Shown here piece after piece: positions 1 through 8,026 of a stretch of 64,000 nucleotides of DNA. The notes under the pieces were generated by a model. It made no database searches and was not told the DNA's origin. It worked only from the letters and a program-made list of their open reading frames with translations. Made by a program: the position numbers and the translations under genes. The stretch spans positions 6,656,001 through 6,720,000 of the forward strand of contig CBDDPY010000002.1 in the NCBI GenBank assembly GCA_965232515.1. The letters run 5' to 3'. Source of the stretch: Alphaproteobacteria bacterium (GTDB lineage: Bacteria; Pseudomonadota; Alphaproteobacteria; GCA-2731375). Each line of letters opens with the position of its first letter. Position 1 is the stretch's first letter.

Positions 1-628
1 GATGCGCCACCACCATGCGCCCCGCGGCATGCTGCGGCGCGCGCCGCGCCATCTCTTGCGTCACGTATTCGTACGACAGGCCGTGAAAGCCGTAGCGCCG
101 GATGCCCGCGTCGTAGTAGGCGCGCGGCAGCCCGAAGGTGTCGTTGACCCAGGGATGCTTGCGGTGAAACGCCGTGTCGAAGCAGGCGACCTGCCGCGCG
201 TCTGGAAAGCAGGTCCTGGCCGCGTGCACGCCCGAGAGGTTGTGCGGCTGGTGCAGCGGCGCCAGCGGCACCAGTTTCTCGAGCGCGTCGAGCGTGTCGT
301 CGGTCAAGAGTACCGGCTCGGCATAGTCCATGCCGCCATGCACCACCCGGTGGCCGACGACCGCCACGCTGATGTCCGGAAAGCGGCTCTCCAGCAGCGC
401 CAGGATCGCGCCCAGCGCCGCCGCGTGGTCGGCCATCCCGGCCGCGTCGAAATCCCGTTCGGCGAGCGGACCGCCGACGCCGTCCCTCGCGGTCAAGCGC
501 GGCGCCGCGCCCAGGCCCTCGACTTGTCCGCGGGCGAGCTCCGTCAGAGCGCCGTCGGCCGCAAACAGCGCGAACTTGATCGAGGACGAGCCGGCGTTCA
601 GCGTCAGGATCTGTTCGGTCGCGGCCAT
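1..628 (-). CDS. ackA: Acetate/propionate kinase (N-terminal part; runs off window edge)
   Basis: Not in the ORF track. Hand translation of the minus strand from ATG at 628 gives MAATEQILTLNAGSSSIKFALF...VGHRVVHGG...LAPLHQPHN...ACFDTAFH...RRYGFHGLSY, the canonical acetate kinase motifs. Confidence 0.95.
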   Translation of the reverse strand, partial: MAATEQILTLNAGSSSIKFALFAADGALTELARGQVEGLGAAPRLTARDGVGGPLAERDFDAAGMADHAAALGAILALLESRFPDISVAVVGHRVVHGGMDYAEPVLLTDDTLDALEKLVPLAPLHQPHNLSGVHAARTCFPDARQVACFDTAFHRKHPWVNDTFGLPRAYYDAGIRRYGFHGLSYEYVTQEMARRAPQHAAGRMVVAH

Positions 629-762
629 GCGCGCGAGTATAGCGGCAACCCCGCCGTCATGCCGGCGCCGCTAAAGAGGGTCGGCATGTAGCGAAATCAA
701 GCGGAACAGGTGGTGATCCCGGCCATCGGACGCCTCGCTCCGGCGACAGCCCCCTGACCACG

Positions 763-856
763 GTCATACCGGCGCAGGCCGGTATCCATGGGCTTCCGAC
801 GGCCAGCGCACTGCTCGCCGACGAGGCACATGGATGCCGGCCTGCGCCGGCATGAC
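763..856. repeat. REP-like inverted-repeat element
   Basis: GTCATACCGGCGCAGGCCGGTATCCA (763) pairs with TGGATGCCGGCCTGCGCCGGCATGAC (831-856) as a near-perfect inverted repeat. A partial copy GTCATGCCGGCGC lies at 656. Confidence 0.75.
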
Positions 857-939
857 GACGGTAAGGCGGAGATGCCCAATGTGGTCAGGTTATCGTTCGC
901 AGACATCGTCAACGAACCGTCGCCGCCCGCCGGTCCCCA

Positions 940-1704
940 TTAGCCGACGATGTGATAGCCCCCGTCGATGTAGTGCACGCCGCCCGTGACGTTCGCGGCC
1001 TCGGCGCTGGCCAGGAAGGCGGCATAGGCGCCGACGTCCTCGATGCTCGCCAGTTGCTGCGTCGGCGCCCGCGCTGCGGCCCGGTCCAGCAGCTCGTCGA
1101 AATCCCCGATGCCGGACGCCGCGCGCGTCTTCAGCGGCCCCGGCGACAGCGCGTGCACTGAGATCTTCTTGGGCCCCAGCTCGGCCGCCATGTAGCGTGT
1201 GACCGATTCCAGCGCCGCCTTCACCGGCCCCATGATGTTGTAGTTCTCGACCACTTTCTCCGAGCCGTAAAACGACACTGTCATGCAGGTCCCGCCTTGC
1301 GGCATCAGCGGCTCGGCCCGCCGCACCATTTGCAAAAACGAATAGACCGAGATGTCCATCGCCGTGACGAAGCCGCTGTGCGAGCAGTCGACGACCCGCG
1401 CGTGCAGGTCGTCGCGCGGGCAGAAGGCGATCGAATGCAAACAAATATCCAGCCCGCCCCAGGTCTGGCGGATGGCGTCGAACACGTGCGCAAACTGCGC
1501 GTCCGCCCGCACGTCCAGCGGCAGCACGATCTCCGCCCCCAGCTTGTCCGCCAGCGGCCTGACGTGCTGCTCGGCCTTCTCGTTCAGATAGGTAACGGCG
1601 AGATCCGCGCCCTGGTCCCGAAACGCCTTCGCGCAGCCATAGGCAATCGACTGCTCATTGGCGATCCCCACCACCAGCGCCTTCTTGCCTTCAAGCGAAA
1701 ACAT
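940..1704 (-). CDS. fabI: Enoyl-ACP reductase FabI
   Basis: LEGKKALVVGIANEQSIAYG, LHSIAF, YNIMGPVKAALES and GPLKTRAASGI motifs. ATG at 1704 preceded by GAGG. Confidence 0.93.
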   Translation of the reverse strand: MFSLEGKKALVVGIANEQSIAYGCAKAFRDQGADLAVTYLNEKAEQHVRPLADKLGAEIVLPLDVRADAQFAHVFDAIRQTWGGLDICLHSIAFCPRDDLHARVVDCSHSGFVTAMDISVYSFLQMVRRAEPLMPQGGTCMTVSFYGSEKVVENYNIMGPVKAALESVTRYMAAELGPKKISVHALSPGPLKTRAASGIGDFDELLDRAAARAPTQQLASIEDVGAYAAFLASAEAANVTGGVHYIDGGYHIVG

Positions 1705-1982
1705 GCCCTCGACCCCGCAGCCCCGCGCCACCGTATGGCCCGCGATTGTGCAGTGCACAAGGTACCGGTCGAACATGACACATCAGCGTCACGCGTGTGA
1801 CAGGGGTGGGAAGGGGTGAAGCGAAGAGTAGTGACCAATTCCCAGATGATGTGCGAAGATATTGTACATTCTCTGGGGTCGATAAGGATGCAATGGTAAG
1901 CCTCACCGGGTTTCTTTAGCGAAACAGAAAATTTGGACTTGATTTGTAGGGGGCGCCGATCATTTGCGGCCCGTTTTTGCAC

Positions 1983-2597
1983 TCAGAGATCCCGATCCTT
2001 CATGAATTGCATCCGATCACTAAGGAAGTAAATGCCCAAAAACATCGCGCAGATGATTTGCCAAAGAAAGACAAAGAAGATAAAAACTATCACATACTTG
2101 AATATAAGAAAAACATACATTGGAGATCCAAGGTTTTCAAAAATGTGACGAAATGGTACATATCTCGAAAAATTAATTAATATAAACATGCAAATTGCGC
2201 TGAAGCACAAATATCCAAATAAAAAACAAACAAATTGTCTGCGAGATAAGGGGTGCTCAATTAAATCTCCTGTATCTGATTTTCTTAGAATTATAATTGC
2301 CGGCTCGCCTTTCATTATATCATCCAAACCTTCTCTATTAAAAGTTGCGACTGCCGCCAGTGCGGCGATAAAAAAAGCAATCAAAAGTTCAATAAGGCTC
2401 AAAAACCTTACGACTAGACCGTCATCTCCTAGAAGGATAATGTTATCTCTAAATATATAAATTGAGAATGTTGTAACTCCCGAAAGTAAAATCGGCAAAA
2501 TCCAATCATAAACTCTCTTCGATCTCCAAAAAGAGCTACCCTGTTCAATTTTCAGATACTTAACAGGGTTGAATATTTGATTGATTGCCCAGTACAT
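1983..2597 (-). CDS. Hypothetical 4-TM membrane protein (AT-rich cassette, gene 2)
   Basis: Four hydrophobic segments (WILPILLSGVTTFSIYIF; FLSLIELLIAFFIAALAAVATF; FVCFLFGYLCFSAICMFILINF; VIVFIFFVFLWQIICAMFLGIYFL). ATG at 2597 is 2 nt after the upstream stop; GTG at 2606 is an alternative start. Confidence 0.85.
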   Translation of the reverse strand: MYWAINQIFNPVKYLKIEQGSSFWRSKRVYDWILPILLSGVTTFSIYIFRDNIILLGDDGLVVRFLSLIELLIAFFIAALAAVATFNREGLDDIMKGEPAIIILRKSDTGDLIEHPLSRRQFVCFLFGYLCFSAICMFILINFSRYVPFRHIFENLGSPMYVFLIFKYVIVFIFFVFLWQIICAMFLGIYFLSDRMQFMKDRDL

Positions 2598-2599
2598 TG

Positions 2600-3631
2600 C
2601 TACCACATAACATCGTTATCTATAATTCCCTTCATTTTTTCTTCGATTTCGGAATCGATCGTCGCATAGCAGCCTTCCAGAAATCGGCTAAACCCCGTCA
2701 TTCGTTGGGAACGGACGTATAGTGTTTCGGCAGCATCGGCGACATCCAGGCTAAACCGTGGTGAGACGCTCGCACCTCCTGGTAAGTCGCGAATATTAAA
2801 TTTTATTTCAGTATACCCTTCATCTATGGCACGGCGTGATATTCGTGGAATAAAATCCAATATAGTTTCACGAGATACAGGTTTTGTTTTTATTTCCACA
2901 TAATCTTCCATTCTTTGAACTAAACCTTCAGTATCAATTCCAGAAAACTTGCTTTGTTGTCTTATAAGTGTGATGCTTGATAAAACTCCCTTTTCGAGAT
3001 CTGCTTTTAGATTATCGGAAGGATTTTTCTCAATATTCAGGCGTGGAATATACCTGCGTTTTTCGATTATCGTTTTCTTTCCTTTTTTTACTGGCTGATC
3101 ATACAAATAATGATCTGATTTGCTCGCGTATCTAGCCAGAATATGTTTTAATAGAAGATCTGCATACGTACTAGAAACTGACGGCATTCGCTCAAAAATA
3201 GCTCGGTAGCTATTTGAGCTGGACAACGAATTAATACCGATAACCAGATGAGCAGACGCGCCAGGAACTTCTGATTCATTCGGTTCAACAATGACTACAT
3301 CTCTGGAATCGGTATCGATGAGAGCGGGATTAACCCGCTGAGGATCGCCTCTATTTATTAGGATTGTGAAATAATTTCCGTCTTCGCTGCGCTGCATATC
3401 TGCAATATAAATCTGGTTTTTATCATCGATGTCGACTCTATCGTCCTCGTTGTTTGGATCGAGTACTCTGCCGCCTTCAGACAAGAAAATTGACGCACGA
3501 TTGGCGCGATATTGGTCTTCTAATATTTCAAGGATTTCGCCAAGTTCGACCGATTTGGCAATCTTTCTAGGAATGGGGGTTGGCTTTACATGCCAAAGAA
3601 ATACCTGTCGTTCTGTTTTCAACGCAACCAT
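2600..3631 (-). CDS. Hypothetical 343-aa soluble protein (AT-rich cassette, gene 1)
   Basis: Long ORF in AT-rich DNA. ATG at 3631 (MVALKTERQ) is preceded by AGGAG. The frame stays open upstream to GTG at 3976. Confidence 0.85.
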   Translation of the reverse strand: MVALKTERQVFLWHVKPTPIPRKIAKSVELGEILEILEDQYRANRASIFLSEGGRVLDPNNEDDRVDIDDKNQIYIADMQRSEDGNYFTILINRGDPQRVNPALIDTDSRDVVIVEPNESEVPGASAHLVIGINSLSSSNSYRAIFERMPSVSSTYADLLLKHILARYASKSDHYLYDQPVKKGKKTIIEKRRYIPRLNIEKNPSDNLKADLEKGVLSSITLIRQQSKFSGIDTEGLVQRMEDYVEIKTKPVSRETILDFIPRISRRAIDEGYTEIKFNIRDLPGGASVSPRFSLDVADAAETLYVRSQRMTGFSRFLEGCYATIDSEIEEKMKGIIDNDVMW

Positions 3632-3991
3632 GTTGCACTCCTGCTCAAGTCCTTCCAACTTTGAGTAGAGCAGGGCCGAGAGCAGAAGTCTAGTTCGACG
3701 GTTGTTTTTACGCAAAAGCGCTCGCTTGTTTATGCCAACAGGCGAACTTATCTGAGGGCGAGAACTGTTTTTGAGTGCGAAGGTTGGCTTTCTTAATGGT
3801 TTTACTTTTGCATGCTTAGGTGTGCATCGAGCCTGTAGTGAGGTTGCAAATTCTGACGCTATGCTGTTAGCCATGGAGGTACCGATGCCCCTTGGGCTGC
3901 ATCCGATCATCGGTCTTAGGACCTCTAAGAGTGCTCGGCGGTCAACTAACTGCCATCCATATACGGTGCCTAGCACCCATCATTGAGACAG

Positions 3992-4024
3992 GAACATAAT
4001 AGGAACATTTTTAACCTCTGTAAA
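3992..4024 (-). promoter_or_regulatory. LexA (SOS) box overlapping a sigma70-type promoter
   Basis: GAAC-ATAATAG-GAAC at 3992-4006 matches the alphaproteobacterial LexA consensus GAAC-N7-GAAC. On the minus strand, TTTACA (4024-4019)-N17-TATTAT (4001-3996), with the -10 inside the box. Confidence 0.75.
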
Positions 4025-4043
4025 GTTAGTCGGCCTGTTGCGG

Positions 4044-4209
4044 GACTGTTCCATGATCGTCGGCCCGCAGAACGAACGGCTCGCCGGCTATCATGACCGC
4101 ATTGCCGGCGATCCTTCGACCCGCCGACTGCGGCGCCAGGCTCGCCGTACCAGTCAAGGACCTGCTCCGCCCCTACAACGGCGACCTTAAAGTCGAAGCC
4201 CCCGACTGA
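4044..4209 (+). pseudogene. C-terminal remnant of an SOS-response-associated peptidase (SRAP/YedK-like)
   Basis: DCSMIVGPQNERLAGYHDR, then a 1-nt insertion at about 4102 (cgc-attg-ccg), then (M)PAILRPADCGARLAVPVKDLLRPYNGDLKVEAPD*. This matches the SRAP HDRMPxIL...LLRPY motif; the N-terminus is absent. Confidence 0.7.
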
Positions 4210-4250
4210 TCGGCGCCGCGACCCGCGCCGGCCGAAAAGAGGGGACAAGA

Positions 4251-4470
4251 ACCGCCAAGACGCCAAGAAGAGAGAAAAATGGTGTTTCGCAGGCCATGAC
4301 GTTGATGTGCTCAGCGTCAGCGCATCCCAGGAATCTTGGTCTCTTGGCGGTGAATCCATTTTTTGGTTCCCTCCACACCGCTGGGCGCATAAGGGAGCCC
4401 ACCGGGGTTCACCGTTGCCTTGCTCAGCGCTTACGCCAACCCACCGGGTTCACGGTCGGTTCGCACCCTT
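4251..4470. repeat. Composite repeat, copy 1 (ACCGCCAAG inverted pair plus ~41-bp hairpin units)
   Basis: Inverted arms at 4251-4267 and 4335-4351 (15/17 match). The unit TGCTCAGCGCTTACGCCAACCCACCGGGTTCACGG... is at 4421-4470, with a degenerate unit at about 4380-4420. Confidence 0.8.
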
Positions 4471-4527
4471 CGCGTCTTTGTGGTGAAACCGGTCCTGGAG
4501 GAATGAACACCTTATATAACGAGCGAC

Positions 4528-5220
4528 ATGCAGTCGTTTGGACCGAACATATGGACGATGAAGGGCGACGATGTCCGCATGTACGGCGTGCTGCCGTTCA
4601 CGACGCGGATGACGGTCGTCCGGCTGGAAGCGGGTGGGGTGTGGCTTCACTCGCCCGTGCGGCCGACGCCGGAACGTCAGCGCGCCGTTGACGAGCTGGG
4701 CCGGGTCCAGCATCTCGTCGCGCCCAACAAGATCCATAGCCTCGGCATCGCGCCCTGGCAGGCGTTGCACCCGTCGGCTAAGGTCTGGGCCTCGCCGGGG
4801 TTCAACAAGCGTCATCCCGATATCGCCGTCGACGCGGTGCTGACGAACGACGTTGATGCCCCCTGGCGCGGCGACATCGATGTTTGCGTGATCGATGGAC
4901 ATGGCCTTCTGGACGAGGTCGCGTTTCTGCACAAGCCCTCGCGCACGCTCATCATCACGGATGTCATCCAGAAGCATGACGCCGCCGGCGAGTCCTGGGT
5001 CTGGCGCGGCGTCAAGGGCATGGCGGGCATCCTGGGCAAGGACGGCGGCGTGCCGCTCGATATCAGGCTCAGCGTTCGGGACAAGACGGTGGTGCGGCGA
5101 AGCATCGACACGATTCTAGGCTGGGATTTCGACAATCTCATCATCGCCCACGGCCATTGCCGGCAAGGCGGCGCCAAAGAAGACGTCGCCCGTGCCTTCG
5201 CTTGGCTCGCCGGCGCTTAA
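4528..5220 (+). CDS. DUF4336 family protein (metallo-beta-lactamase-like)
   Basis: TRMTVVRL..GGVWLHSP, LVAPNKIH, EVAFLHKPSRTLIITD and WDFDNLIIAHG motifs. Confidence 0.85.
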   Translation: MQSFGPNIWTMKGDDVRMYGVLPFTTRMTVVRLEAGGVWLHSPVRPTPERQRAVDELGRVQHLVAPNKIHSLGIAPWQALHPSAKVWASPGFNKRHPDIAVDAVLTNDVDAPWRGDIDVCVIDGHGLLDEVAFLHKPSRTLIITDVIQKHDAAGESWVWRGVKGMAGILGKDGGVPLDIRLSVRDKTVVRRSIDTILGWDFDNLIIAHGHCRQGGAKEDVARAFAWLAGA

Positions 5221-5253
5221 CGACTCATCGGAAGGGAGGGGAAAGAAGGAAGA

Positions 5254-5487
5254 ACCGCCAAGGCGCCAAGACGCCAACGGGTCGAAAAGGCATCGCCGCT
5301 GATGTCATTATCGGCACGGTCCGATAAACCCCTCCACGTTTTCCTTCTTGGTGTCTTGGCGCCTTGGCGGTCAAAAATGTTTGTTTTCCTTCTCGGTGCT
5401 CAGCGTTTACGCGAACCCGCTGGGTTCACGGTCGCCGTGCTCAGCGCTTACGCGAACCCACCGGGTTCACGTTCGCTTCGCACCCTT
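5254..5487. repeat. Composite repeat, copy 2
   Basis: Inverted arms at 5254-5277 and 5348-5371 (23/24 match). Tandem units at 5397-5437 and 5438-5487; the latter is 47/50 identical to 4421-4470. Confidence 0.8.
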
Positions 5488-5635
5488 GGCGCGTGACATC
5501 CGCCAGATGCCGCGCGGATTGAACGACTGCTGACATGATGCTGGCAACGGCAGCCTGCCATTAAGGCACGATCGGGCGCGGGCCGCCGACGCGTCGAACG
5601 CTTCGATAGCGGCAACATCGACCCGGAGAATAGCC

Positions 5636-6118
5636 ATGCCGTCCATGCCCCGCCTTGACCCGATGCTGTGCGACGCGACCGGTGAGCTGGTGCTGCGGCG
5701 GGCGACGGAGGATGACAGCGACTACGCCTTCGCGATGCGAAAGGCCGCGTTCCGGGTCTACGTCGACAGGAGCGGCGGCTGGGATGAGCAGGCGGAGCGG
5801 CGCCGGCATGAACGCAGTTTCGCCGTTCACGACTACCGCGTGATCTGCCTGCGTGGCGAAGCCCGGGGCATCGTCTCGCTCGACCTGTCCGGCGACCGTT
5901 TCAAGATCAACCAGATCTTCCTCGCGCCGGCGCAGCAGAGGCAGGGCATCGGCGGGCGATGCATGGCGTTGCTGATCGCCGAAGCGCGGCGTCTCGACCT
6001 GCCCGTCCTGTTGCGCGTGATGAAGGTCAATCCCCGCGCCAGGGCGCTCTACGAGCGCCTCGATTTCCAGGTCACCGACGAAACCGACACGCACGTCGTC
6101 ATGGAGAAGCGCCACTGA
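5636..6118 (+). CDS. GNAT family N-acetyltransferase
   Basis: IFLAPAQQRQGIG acetyl-CoA-binding motif and NPRARALYERLDF. GGAGA RBS. Confidence 0.88.
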   Translation: MPSMPRLDPMLCDATGELVLRRATEDDSDYAFAMRKAAFRVYVDRSGGWDEQAERRRHERSFAVHDYRVICLRGEARGIVSLDLSGDRFKINQIFLAPAQQRQGIGGRCMALLIAEARRLDLPVLLRVMKVNPRARALYERLDFQVTDETDTHVVMEKRH

Positions 6119-6258
6119 TCCGCCGGGTCGGGCGCACGGCGGCGTCGCCAAGTCGGGCCGTCGGCACGTCACACGCCATCCGCCCGCCATTGCCGGACGC
6201 GCGCGAGCGATACACACTGCCGCCAACCGACATGCACAAGCCGGGAAGGGGACGCGGC

Positions 6259-6903
6259 ATGGACCGACAGGCCGACTGGTATTTCGATTACGTCTCGCCC
6301 TACGCCTATCTGCAGTTCATGAACTTCGGCCGGCTGCCGGCCGATCTCGCGGTGCGGCCGGTGCCGGTGTTGTTCGCCGGCCTGCTTGGCCATTGGAACA
6401 ATATGGGCCCGGCCGAGATCCCGGCGAAGCGGCGACAGACCTACCGTTACTGCCACTGGCTGGCGGCGAAGCGGAGCGTGCCGTTCCGGACGCCGCCGCG
6501 GCATCCGTTCAATCCGCTGGCCGTGCTGCGGCTGACAACAGCGCTCGGGTCCACGGCCGAGGTCGTGGGCGCGGTGTTCCGGCATATCTGGGGCACGGGC
6601 AACGACGGGCAGGATCCGGCGAGCCTCGCCGCGCTCGCCGCCGATCTTGGCATCGGCGACTGGCAGACGCGCATTGACGACCCGGCCGTGAAATCAGCGC
6701 TGCGCGCCAATACCGATGCCGCCATCGCCCGCGGCGTCTTCGGCATCCCCACGTTCGCGGTCGACGACGAGCTGTTCTGGGGCGAGGACGTCACCGACAT
6801 GCTGCTCGACTACCTCGCCGACCCCGACACTTTCCGCAAGGGCGAATGGACACGCCTCGCCAACCTCCCCACCGCCGCCGAACGCCGCCAAAGCCGGCTC
6901 TGA
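6259..6903 (+). CDS. 2-hydroxychromene-2-carboxylate isomerase / DsbA-GST-kappa family protein
   Basis: WYFDYVSPYAYL and GVFGIPTFAVDDELFWGED motifs. ATG at 6259. Confidence 0.88.
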   Translation: MDRQADWYFDYVSPYAYLQFMNFGRLPADLAVRPVPVLFAGLLGHWNNMGPAEIPAKRRQTYRYCHWLAAKRSVPFRTPPRHPFNPLAVLRLTTALGSTAEVVGAVFRHIWGTGNDGQDPASLAALAADLGIGDWQTRIDDPAVKSALRANTDAAIARGVFGIPTFAVDDELFWGEDVTDMLLDYLADPDTFRKGEWTRLANLPTAAERRQSRL

Positions 6904-7065
6904 GCTTGCGGCCATGTCTCACGCGCCTGAAGCGGAAACCGGGACGGCCCGGCGTCGCCGGGCGAGGGCAAGCGAGAGGGCGAAGAGACCAACACCGAGC
7001 AGGGTAAGCGAGCCGGGAGCCGGCACCGACCGGCGCAAGGAGGGGCAAGGCCGTTCGCCACCCGG

Positions 7066-7842
7066 CTAGGCGGCCCTGACGAACACCAGCTTGTTGATGT
7101 TCCGCCGGTCCGGCACCAGGTCGTCAAGCAAGCGCGTCACCGGCAACGCCATGGTCATGAGCAGGCGCTGCGCGGACCCGAACGCCTCGCCCTCGCGGTG
7201 CGCGCGCCGGCCGAAGACCGCGTTCAGCAGCCGCCAGACGCCGTTGCTGACCCGCGTTTTCAGGCTGTAGCGGTGCCGCAGCGTGAAGCCGTTTTGCGCA
7301 AACAGCTCGGCATAGATCTCGAGCCGCCGCGCCAGATAGGAGGTGTCGCGCGTGAGTTCGTCGTCGCCGATGGCTTCCATGACGACGACCTCGGACCGCG
7401 TCACGCGACAGATATCGGCGACCAGCGTGGTCAACATGGCGCCATCGGTGCAGTGCTGCAGCACGGTCGCGGTAAACGCCACGTCGACCGACCGTTCGTC
7501 GAGCGGAAGATGCGCGCCGTCCGACTTGTGAACGGTGACAGCGACGTCGCAATCGGCCGTCCCCGCCTTGGCGAGCGCCACCATGTCGGCCGAAATATCG
7601 CAGCCGATCAGCGCCTCGGGCGCCCTGTGGCCGGCCAGCCAGGCCAGATTGCCGCCCGGACCGCAGCCGACCTCGAGCACCGTCTTGCGGTCGACGTCGA
7701 CCTTTGCGAGGCAGGCGTTCAGGAACTTGGCGCGTCGATATCGGTGGAACGGGTCGTCGTCGCCGGCCACGACGTTGCCTGCGTCGCGCCGTCCGATTTC
7801 CGATGCGACCCGTGACCAGTACGCTTCAGCGTCATAAGCCAA
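7066..7842 (-). CDS. Class I SAM-dependent methyltransferase
   Basis: VLEVGCGPG, GCDISADM and VDVAFTATVLQH motifs. Confidence 0.85.
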   Translation of the reverse strand: MAYDAEAYWSRVASEIGRRDAGNVVAGDDDPFHRYRRAKFLNACLAKVDVDRKTVLEVGCGPGGNLAWLAGHRAPEALIGCDISADMVALAKAGTADCDVAVTVHKSDGAHLPLDERSVDVAFTATVLQHCTDGAMLTTLVADICRVTRSEVVVMEAIGDDELTRDTSYLARRLEIYAELFAQNGFTLRHRYSLKTRVSNGVWRLLNAVFGRRAHREGEAFGSAQRLLMTMALPVTRLLDDLVPDRRNINKLVFVRAA

Positions 7843-7960
7843 AACAAACCCCCAACGTCCGCCATCGAGGGATGATCGCGTTTAGGATATCGCATTGCGC
7901 GACCGTTCGCAGCCCGGTCTTTTGAGCACCGTCATATGGCGTGCGAACACGGCGGGCGGC

Positions 7961-8026
7961 GACCCGGTGATCCAGAACCGTGCCTTGATCGGGCGTTGCC
8001 TGGATTGCCGGATCGAGTGCGGCAAC
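7961..8026. repeat. Degenerate REP-like palindromic element
   Basis: CCGGTGATCCAG...CTGGATTGCCGG inverted pair, followed by ATCGAGTGCGGCAAC; resembles the alphaproteobacterial TGGATTGCCGG...GGCAATGAC repeats. Confidence 0.45.

Follow-up and report, generated by a model that had tools for sequence, protein, structure and literature searches.

The subject of this analysis is a GC-poor cassette of two genes, here called A and B, that lies near the start of a window of 64,000 nucleotides (64 kb) from the genome of an alphaproteobacterium (contig CBDDPY010000002.1, forward-strand positions 6,656,001 to 6,720,000). All positions given below are those of the window. The genome is 7.39 Mb in size and has 65.5% GC. 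The GC profile of the window falls to 33–49% at approximately 1950–4030, and the cassette itself, at 1983–4024, has 40.7% GC compared to 64.2% for the 64-kb window. The initial annotation of this DNA had described an abrupt AT-rich insert here, and the counts on which it relied (G+C of 16/60 in the line 2161–2220 versus 44/60 in the line 1081–1140) were exact.

Gene A is on the minus strand at 2600–3631, from an ATG at 3631, with GGAG 6 nt on its 5' side, to a TAG at 2600, and encodes a soluble protein of 343 residues. An alternative in-frame start for this gene, a GTG at 3976, would give a frame of 458 residues. The longer frame is probably not used, because the consensus of 40 homologues of A begins with MVALKTER, with the in-frame N-terminal extension not being conserved among them, and because the M53A profiles of the PADLOC database (320–334 positions) align from approximately residue 130 of the longer frame. 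Gene B (1983–2597, minus strand, ATG at 2597) starts 2 nt after the stop codon of A and encodes a four-helix membrane protein of 204 residues, whose translation contains the segments FFIAALAAVATF, LDDIMKGEP and LSRRQFVCFLFGYL. The open reading frames (ORFs) thus bore out the annotation of two coupled genes, including the segments quoted from B. Both genes were assigned by PADLOC models (PDC-M53A and PDC-M53B, respectively) together with AlphaFold models.

Upstream of gene A is a leader of 360 nt (3632–3991, minus strand) in which nothing was recognisable, followed by a promoter-like site directed towards A and B (3996–4024, minus strand), with a -35 element TTTACA at 4024–4019, a 17-nt spacer and a -10 element TATTAT at 4001–3996. 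An alpha-proteobacterial-type LexA box, GTTC-N7-GTTC, overlaps the -10 element at 3992–4006 on the minus strand and reads GTTCCTATTATGTTC (ATGTTCCTATTATGTTCC). The leader had no Rfam match, and the region 3632–4060, when compared with the rest of the genome and with what lies upstream in 77 related loci, both as proteins and as DNA, showed no similarity. A decayed repressor gene in the leader was considered and is unsupported, since these comparisons returned nothing.

PDC-M53 pairs and their surroundings

Both proteins of the cassette matched models of one family, PDC-M53, in PADLOC-DB v2.0.0 (models PDLC04694–04699). Protein A matched PDC-M53A with an E-value of 3.6e-26 over profile positions 51–318 of 320, with five of the five M53A models giving a match, and protein B matched PDC-M53B with an E-value of 1.1e-39 over profile positions 3–185 of 188. 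No other model of the 5027 in the database matched A or B at E ≤ 1, and neither protein had a match in Pfam. As both proteins match PDC-M53, the cassette is, by profile comparison, a copy of a family of phage-defence candidates that had already been catalogued, and is not an undescribed system as the initial annotation had it. That annotation had itself stated that a hit to an already named system would remove the novelty, and most of the novelty is gone. The part of its interpretation that stood is that of a horizontally acquired, Rex-like, LexA-boxed defence candidate. PDC-M53 is only a candidate for phage defence, and the sole paper in the searchable literature that names the family does so, in the portion of its text that is accessible, as a table entry among PADLOC outputs for Salmonella (PMC13656390).

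The window pair has the gene order and the sizes of the PDC-M53 family, whose models also recognise the copies of Shigella phage SfII, of Salmonella phage F1055 and of Vibrio elements. The window copy is set apart from these just by its host, an alpha-proteobacterium of about 65% GC, and by its LexA-boxed promoter. In a protein collection clustered at 90%, there were 72 relatives of A and 214 of B, none of which had an informative name or Pfam domain. A profile built from 54 diverse A sequences identified 1208 cluster representatives (50% identity) at E ≤ 1e-3 among 1.84 billion. A search of the ESM Atlas returned unnamed clusters only, with DUF6731 annotated on 15% of the members of one cluster.

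To describe the genomic context of the family, we used 80 related loci that were gathered through an alignment of B and were, in that sense, selected through B. In 77 of the 80, gene A directly preceded B on the same strand, so that the pairing of homologues, which had been put forward as a check on the annotation, proved to be strict. The exceptions were L027, L081 and L030, the last of which has B at a contig edge. By their record titles, the hosts include Alpha-, Beta- and Gammaproteobacteria, Desulfovibrionaceae, Deferribacteraceae, a metagenome-assembled genome of Chloroflexota, Pirellulaceae and a cyanobacterium.

The neighbourhood of the pair was tallied in the 77 loci from two genes on each side (291 proteins, called with a simple ORF caller, with Pfam names sorted by hand). 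Restriction-modification or defence-type genes were neighbours in 20 of the 77 loci, phage genes in 12, and integrase, resolvase, transposase, conjugation or plasmid genes in 17. The union of these classes is 45/77 loci, which includes three flagged by a D12 methylase alone; the defence and mobile-gene surroundings that the annotation had led us to look for were therefore present, while enrichment can be stated in a descriptive sense only, as the tally is without a matched control. Type I restriction genes were neighbours in L024, L028, L045, L055 and L072, and a Type ISP restriction enzyme was directly upstream of the pair in L063, L071 and L076. Further neighbours of this kind were MmeI, GmrSD, Mrr, and EcoRV with its methylase, and those named by PADLOC were Septu PtuA/PtuB (L015), PD-Lambda-1 (L026) and PDC-S06 (L022).

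The three loci with the Type ISP enzyme are marine alpha-proteobacterial loci in which the enzyme, of 1629–1741 residues, ends within approximately 20 nt of the start of A on the same strand (about 1800–7000 of each locus, plus strand). In these loci the pair may be co-transcribed with, or embedded in, the Type ISP system.

Related pairs are also carried by temperate phages that have been sequenced. In Shigella phage SfII the pair (genes 50 and 49) has its place between Q and the lysis genes, and in Salmonella phage F1055 it precedes the holin gene, likewise between Q and the lysis genes. In Vibrio Vinavirales elements it adjoins an integrase, and in L035 and L042 it is in a phage tail region. 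The statement in the initial annotation that similar pairs occur as morons in enterobacterial prophages was therefore accurate, SfII and F1055 being examples. In three of the 77 loci (L015, L020 and L033), a CI-type repressor, composed of a helix-turn-helix domain and an S24 peptidase, is directly upstream of the pair on the same strand; in L033 this is accompanied by a divergent Cro/YdaS-like gene. The arrangement of repressor and pair in these three loci is the lambda cI-rexA-rexB layout.

These phage-borne copies bear on the possibility that the pair is a temperate-phage moron for superinfection exclusion or lysogeny management, in which B would block DNA entry, or A would bias the repressor switch, with no killing of the cell. 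Such a moron would show the positions that the pair has at these loci, namely in immunity regions behind CI-type repressors (3/77) and at moron sites of real phages (SfII and F1055, between Q and the lysis genes; L035 and L042, the tail region), and the accessible text of the RexA structure paper describes a role of RexA in the lambda switch that is independent of RexB (PMC11077077). However, many copies, that of the window included, are outside prophages, among restriction or housekeeping genes, without CI or Cro. In addition, the strict pairing of A and B in 77/80 loci argues that the two proteins act together. We consider a moron of this type unlikely.

Predicted structures of A and B

The AlphaFold model of protein A, built from 40 sequences, had a pLDDT of 89 and a pTM of 0.78, and consists of an N-terminal beta/alpha globular part, a middle beta-sheet domain and a C-terminal helix. 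A Foldseek search of the Protein Data Bank (PDB) with this model returned lambda RexA first (8twq_B, E-value 8.8e-4, probability 0.96), followed by E. coli RdgC. A second structural aligner, VIA, which is independent of Foldseek and was run against 48,161 representative chains, also identified lambda RexA, which was the sole match of A at Z ≥ 8. The predicted model of A and the solved structure 8TWQ aligned with a Z of 9.7 and a root-mean-square deviation (rmsd) of 3.5 over 142 residues, between 8–343 of the model and 1–266 of chain B. The next chains were Iml3 (Z 6.7), RdgC (Z 6.1–6.6) and those of the Chl4/CENP-N type, and a repeat run gave the same order.

As far as the accessible text of the RexA structure paper goes, RdgC, Iml3 and Chl4 are the structural relatives of RexA itself, and RexA is laid out as a globular domain, which is split, and a beta-sheet dimerisation domain (PMC11077077). 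The order of secondary-structure elements in the model of A fits the layout described there. On the evidence of its model, protein A has the RexA/RdgC fold, so that the Rex-like architecture which the initial annotation had proposed from the pairing of a soluble with a membrane protein is more than an analogy. The RexA-like fold of A is what is new here, the family itself having been catalogued before.

The fold match had no counterpart in sequence searches. The PADLOC RexA model was not matched by A at E ≤ 1. As a positive control, lambda RexA matched its own Pfam (PF15969) and PADLOC models with E-values of 1e-97 and 9e-110. The second of two hhalign alignments of A with RexA paired the C-terminal helices of both proteins around a common 'CY'; it is collinear and not significant.

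Conservation within the family drew attention to three residues of A. In a set of 78 divergent homologues, E121, H128 and E147 (codons at approximately 3271–3269, 3250–3248 and 3193–3191 of the window, minus strand) were conserved in at least 88%, while column identity over the remainder of the protein averages 25%. H128 and E147 were invariant in the 54-row alignment of A. The conservation of these residues suggests that they may form a metal-binding or catalytic site.

The AlphaFold model of protein B had a pLDDT of 93.6 and four long helices, at residues 27–48, 66–85, 119–144 and 160–198, with a beta-hairpin loop joining helices 2 and 3. A Kyte-Doolittle scan showed helices 2–4 to be strongly hydrophobic and helix 1 to be weaker, which is in keeping with the four transmembrane segments of the initial annotation. 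Residues P35, F75, A81 and R120 and the motif LLIAFFIAALAAVATF were invariant in 81 homologues of B. Comparison of the model with the PDB gave generic helical bundles only, at Z ≤ 7.6. Connexin and pannexin chains were among the matches, at Z of 4.6–5.7 with high rmsd, and were not taken as evidence.

With respect to RexB, the PADLOC RexB model was not matched by B at E ≤ 1, and lambda RexB, as a positive control, matched its own Pfam (PF15968) and PADLOC models. The stretches aligned by hhalign between B and RexB were collinear in both comparisons (B 29–80 and 32–80 with RexB 9–61 and 12–61) and reach from helix 1 as far as an 'IAxxIAA' motif of helix 2. In the BFVD database nothing was found for B at E ≤ 0.1. 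The best of the non-significant matches there included A0A0A7RXT6, an uncharacterised 165-residue protein of Mycobacterium phage Sbash, with an E-value of 0.65 and a TM-score of 0.39–0.46. Sbash has a known Rex-like pair, and we mention this protein as a lead only.

RexAB of phage lambda is the oldest known phage-exclusion system; its mechanism is unsettled and its recognised relatives are few. A protein search found 23 relatives of RexB, nearly all of them enterobacterial by their source names. In the classical model, RexA responds to phage DNA-protein intermediates and activates RexB, upon which the membrane potential collapses and the infection is aborted. The window pair and its family resemble RexAB in several ways: the best structural match of A is RexA, the weaker structural relatives RdgC, Iml3 and Chl4 are common to A and RexA, a soluble gene precedes a four-helix membrane gene, some PDC-M53 copies are directly behind a CI-type repressor as in lambda, and both systems are phage-borne. 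There are also differences. There is no detectable sequence similarity of A to RexA or of B to RexB, both proteins are larger than their counterparts (343 versus 279 residues for A and RexA, 204 versus 144 for B and RexB), and the beta-hairpin loop of B and the conserved Glu/His/Glu set of A separate the pair from RexAB. In addition, rexAB is co-transcribed with cI, whereas the window copy has a LexA-boxed promoter instead. We therefore describe the cassette as Rex-like in its architecture and in the fold of A, and not as a member of the RexAB sequence families; it is filed under PDC-M53 because no sequence method links A or B to RexA or RexB.

Three other known systems resemble the pair in part. 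Kiwa (KwaA/KwaB) consists of two genes, for a four-helix membrane protein and a soluble partner, with the membrane gene first. The two-gene build is common to Kiwa and the window pair, but the gene order is the opposite, with the soluble gene first in the A-B pair. There was no DUF4868 match and no match to a PADLOC Kiwa model at E ≤ 1 for A or B, and the likeness to Kiwa drawn in the initial annotation thus found no support. RdgC is encoded by a gene that stands alone, is inherited vertically and has no membrane partner. The structure of E. coli RdgC (2OWL) aligned with 151–155 residues of A and spanned nearly the whole model, but the rmsd was high (8.1–8.6), and there was no Pfam RdgC hit. 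As described in the accessible text of the RexA structure paper, RexA homologues of actinobacteriophages (in the pairs Sbash gp30/gp31, CarolAnn gp44 and Toast gp42) have 337–372 residues, near to the 343 of A; those purified were dimers that bound DNA non-specifically, and several are beside CI- or Cro-like genes (PMC11077077). The likeness of the window pair to these Rex-like pairs is drawn from that published description.

LexA box and proposed function

Since the number of promoter-like sites is that expected by chance, the site upstream of A is by itself weak evidence, and it is the overlap with the LexA box that matters. The site scored 10/12 and was joint best of five sites in 1800–4400, where shuffled sequences gave an expectation of 4.8. 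The motif GTTC-N7-GTTC occurs 183 times on both strands of the 7.39 Mb, which corresponds to approximately 0.01 expected per 400 nt. The same type of motif is located approximately 140 nt upstream of recA and approximately 45 nt upstream of lexA in this genome, which is evidence for its being the LexA motif type of the host. By our reading, 13 sites genome-wide, the box at 4006–3992 among them, have TGTTC in each half around a spacer that is AT-rich. The 33 ORFs beside 16 boxes with AT-rich spacers include a Y-family polymerase, a 3-methyladenine glycosylase, a radical-SAM protein and a nuclease.

LexA boxes were found upstream of A at other loci of the family as well. A perfect CTGT-N8-ACAG was present at five of 76 loci, compared to 0.27 expected from the other DNA of the same loci. 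In Xenorhabdus, Serratia and Colwellia these boxes are intergenic and 69–130 nt before A, with that of Serratia reading ACTGTATATACATACAGT. The Oceanicaulis locus has an alpha-type box that overlaps a TTGACA-17-TAAGAA promoter, and two prophage copies in Erwinia/Cedecea have boxes with one mismatch. Speaking against a general link to the SOS response, the perfect hit in L083 is in the wrong type of host, and the hit in L062 is inside a divergent ORF. Based on the motifs and their positions, we concluded that SOS control would be recurrent in a minority of PDC-M53 copies, and that SOS control of the window copy is likely. The box itself and its overlap with the -10 element agree with the LexA-boxed promoter of the initial annotation. 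We also considered whether the box could be a leftover of the promoter of the adjoining SRAP (SOS response-associated peptidase) remnant, and rejected this, because just the 3' third of that gene remains; the intact paralogue has no GTTC-N7-GTTC just upstream.

The link to DNA damage could have a different meaning, that of a non-antiviral module in which A, as an RdgC-like DNA-binding protein, has a modulating effect on RecA or recombination, or anchors DNA at the membrane via B, and which is induced in the SOS response. RdgC is the second-best fold match of A (Z 6.1–6.6), LexA boxes are upstream of the pair in the window and at several other loci, and the insert adjoins the SRAP remnant. SOS-regulon-type repair genes are near the pair in three loci: L040 and L053 have uvrB, and L068 has a UmuC-like fragment. 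Such a module is, in our judgement, quite unlikely. Housekeeping repair would predict vertical inheritance, whereas the distribution of the pair is sporadic and its composition GC-poor; moreover, the pair is found in phages and beside restriction and defence genes, and most loci have no LexA box.

The same promoter, the 2-nt spacing of the genes and their carriage by mobile elements would also suit an SOS-triggered module of self-intoxication or addiction, with B as a membrane toxin and A as its regulator or antidote, that stabilises an element or arrests growth whether or not a phage is present. B would be a plausible toxin, as it is a conserved membrane protein of four helices in which charged residues are invariant. 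Protein A is large for such a role (343 residues) and has a DNA-binding-type fold, unlike typical antitoxins, and no toxin-antitoxin family was matched in Pfam or PADLOC. This explanation overlaps with that of a Rex-type system, and the two are hard to tell apart by sequence. We regard it as distinctly improbable.

Based on the fold of A, the strict pairing and the phage and defence-island context, we favor, on balance, the interpretation of the pair as a Rex-type phage-exclusion system. In such a system, A would be a cytoplasmic protein of the RexA/RdgC fold that, by analogy, acts as a DNA-binding dimer that senses phage DNA, or intermediates of replication or recombination. B would be its four-helix partner in the inner membrane, with which A is expected to be in contact, and, by analogy with RexB, would damage membrane energetics once A has been triggered, so that the infected cell would stop supporting phage growth. 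The alpha-type LexA operator covering the -10 element of the operon promoter would, if bound by LexA, keep expression low in undamaged cells. Activation of RecA by DNA damage, by prophage induction or by phage attack on DNA would then de-repress the operon.

Several results weigh against a Rex-type system. The match of A with RexA spans 142 of 343 residues, less than half of the protein being superposed, and the global TM-scores are 0.23–0.28. The Pfam families RexA, RexB and RdgC had no match at E ≤ 5 in A, in B, or in 40 homologues of A and 41 of B, while lambda RexA and RexB matched their own Pfam and PADLOC models only. The probabilities returned by hhalign were 0.3% and 0.6% for the alignments of A with lambda RexA, and 5% (single sequence) and 1.8% (15-row RexB alignment), which is not significant, for B with RexB. 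The model of B had no informative structural match in the PDB or BFVD. The E121/H128/E147 set of A is left unexplained by the Rex analogy, sits poorly with the rival explanations as well, and could reflect an activity that RexA lacks. No phenotype was found in the searchable literature for any member of PDC-M53, and the neighbourhood tally is descriptive, having been made with a simple ORF caller and without a matched random-gene control.

Other such results concern the proposed regulation. Most related loci have no LexA box, and when one mismatch is allowed the count of loci with a box is 12/76, where approximately seven are expected. In the window, 360 nt of leader without recognisable content separate the box from the start codon of A, and most of the 33 ORFs beside boxes with AT-rich spacers are not recognisable damage genes.

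We also entertained a bolder version of the Rex-type interpretation, which is possible but doubtful. PDC-M53 would be a separate and widespread Rex-type branch that has repeatedly come under the control of the host LexA, with operators matched to the host (GTTC-N7-GTTC in alpha-, CTGT-N8-ACAG in gamma-proteobacteria), and would be armed by DNA damage instead of being constitutive. The Glu/His/Glu site of A, which lambda RexA is not known to have, might in that case carry out chemistry, for example on nucleic acid, beyond the binding of DNA. If PDC-M53 is truly of Rex type, the known range of such immunity would widen to approximately 1,200 representatives in several phyla, which would provide many natural variants for dissecting how a sensor communicates with its membrane partner. 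The recurrence of LexA operators suggests that the SOS response may be what arms some of the copies.

The chromosomal site

The cassette is located in a variable segment of the chromosome between fabI and a gene for a DsbA-like protein (1815–6185), as identified by comparison with G001, a genome of the same genus that is 81% complete. Homology between the two genomes extends to window position 1814, just upstream of fabI, and resumes from 6186, near the DsbA-like gene. In the interval, G001 has a different GC-poor pair, which is PD-Lambda-5 A and B (E-values of 6.5e-86 and 2.6e-112). This pair (L100, G001:C7:3000-9000, minus strand) encodes a 440-residue A protein and a 281-residue D12 adenine methylase, in ORFs 2343–3665 and 1494–2339, respectively. 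The interval of the window also contains the SRAP remnant, a DUF4336 gene and a GNAT gene. Because defence-type genes occupy the interval in both genomes, the site looks like a variable cargo site and a hotspot for defence genes. For this genome, the fitting annotation is thus a defence-candidate cassette in a variable site that has PD-Lambda-5 in the sister species.

The pair was GC-poorer than its flanks in all 76 loci that were measured. Among the 33 genomes of the taxonomic family of the window, B was present in one, the genome of the window itself, and in none of the 32 others, which are 71–100% complete. The low GC content, the absence of B from the other 32 genomes and the different cargo at the same site in a relative show that the cassette was horizontally acquired, as the initial annotation had deduced.

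The SRAP remnant (4043–4209, plus strand) is truncated at its 5' end and frameshifted, and we regard it as context and not as part of the system. At the DNA level, positions 4043–4198 on the plus strand share 71% identity with the 3' end of a paralogue in the same genome (G000:C2:829054-829662), which is intact, has 202 residues and matches Pfam SRAP with an E-value of 5.9e-41. The DNA match upheld the identification of an SRAP remnant in the initial annotation. The first two thirds of the gene are missing and there is one frame change; Pfam had no match to the two frames of the remnant, which are too short. The rest of the SRAP gene was lost through the insert itself or through an associated deletion.

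The decay of this flanking gene, together with the long unexplained leader, would be expected if the cassette were a decaying passenger without a present function in its host. Both frames of the cassette are nevertheless intact and full length with respect to the family profiles, the conserved residues have been kept, and the promoter and operator are intact. A passenger of this type is very improbable.

Short hairpin-forming repeats are present at approximately 713–910 and 5250–5380 and also at 4468–4487, and both this genome and G001 have many copies of them. By appearance they are REP/MITE-like elements flanking the variable segment. Other contigs from one sequencing run, X1, join the stretch at these same repeats; this run contains the whole stretch and may be the source of the assembly, and run X3 contains fragments of identical sequence. 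None of the runs listed as containing the stretch is recorded as RNA, and two RNA runs, X4 and X8, had 0 reads of this organism. A search of Rfam with window positions 1–8000 gave just two sub-threshold names, both of plant microRNAs and both on repeat hairpins, which were taken as chance. Elsewhere in the assembly, contigs C3 (5516 bases, 45.8% GC) and C4 (10862 bases, 42.3% GC) are approximately 20 GC points below the chromosome and could be small mobile elements or contamination.

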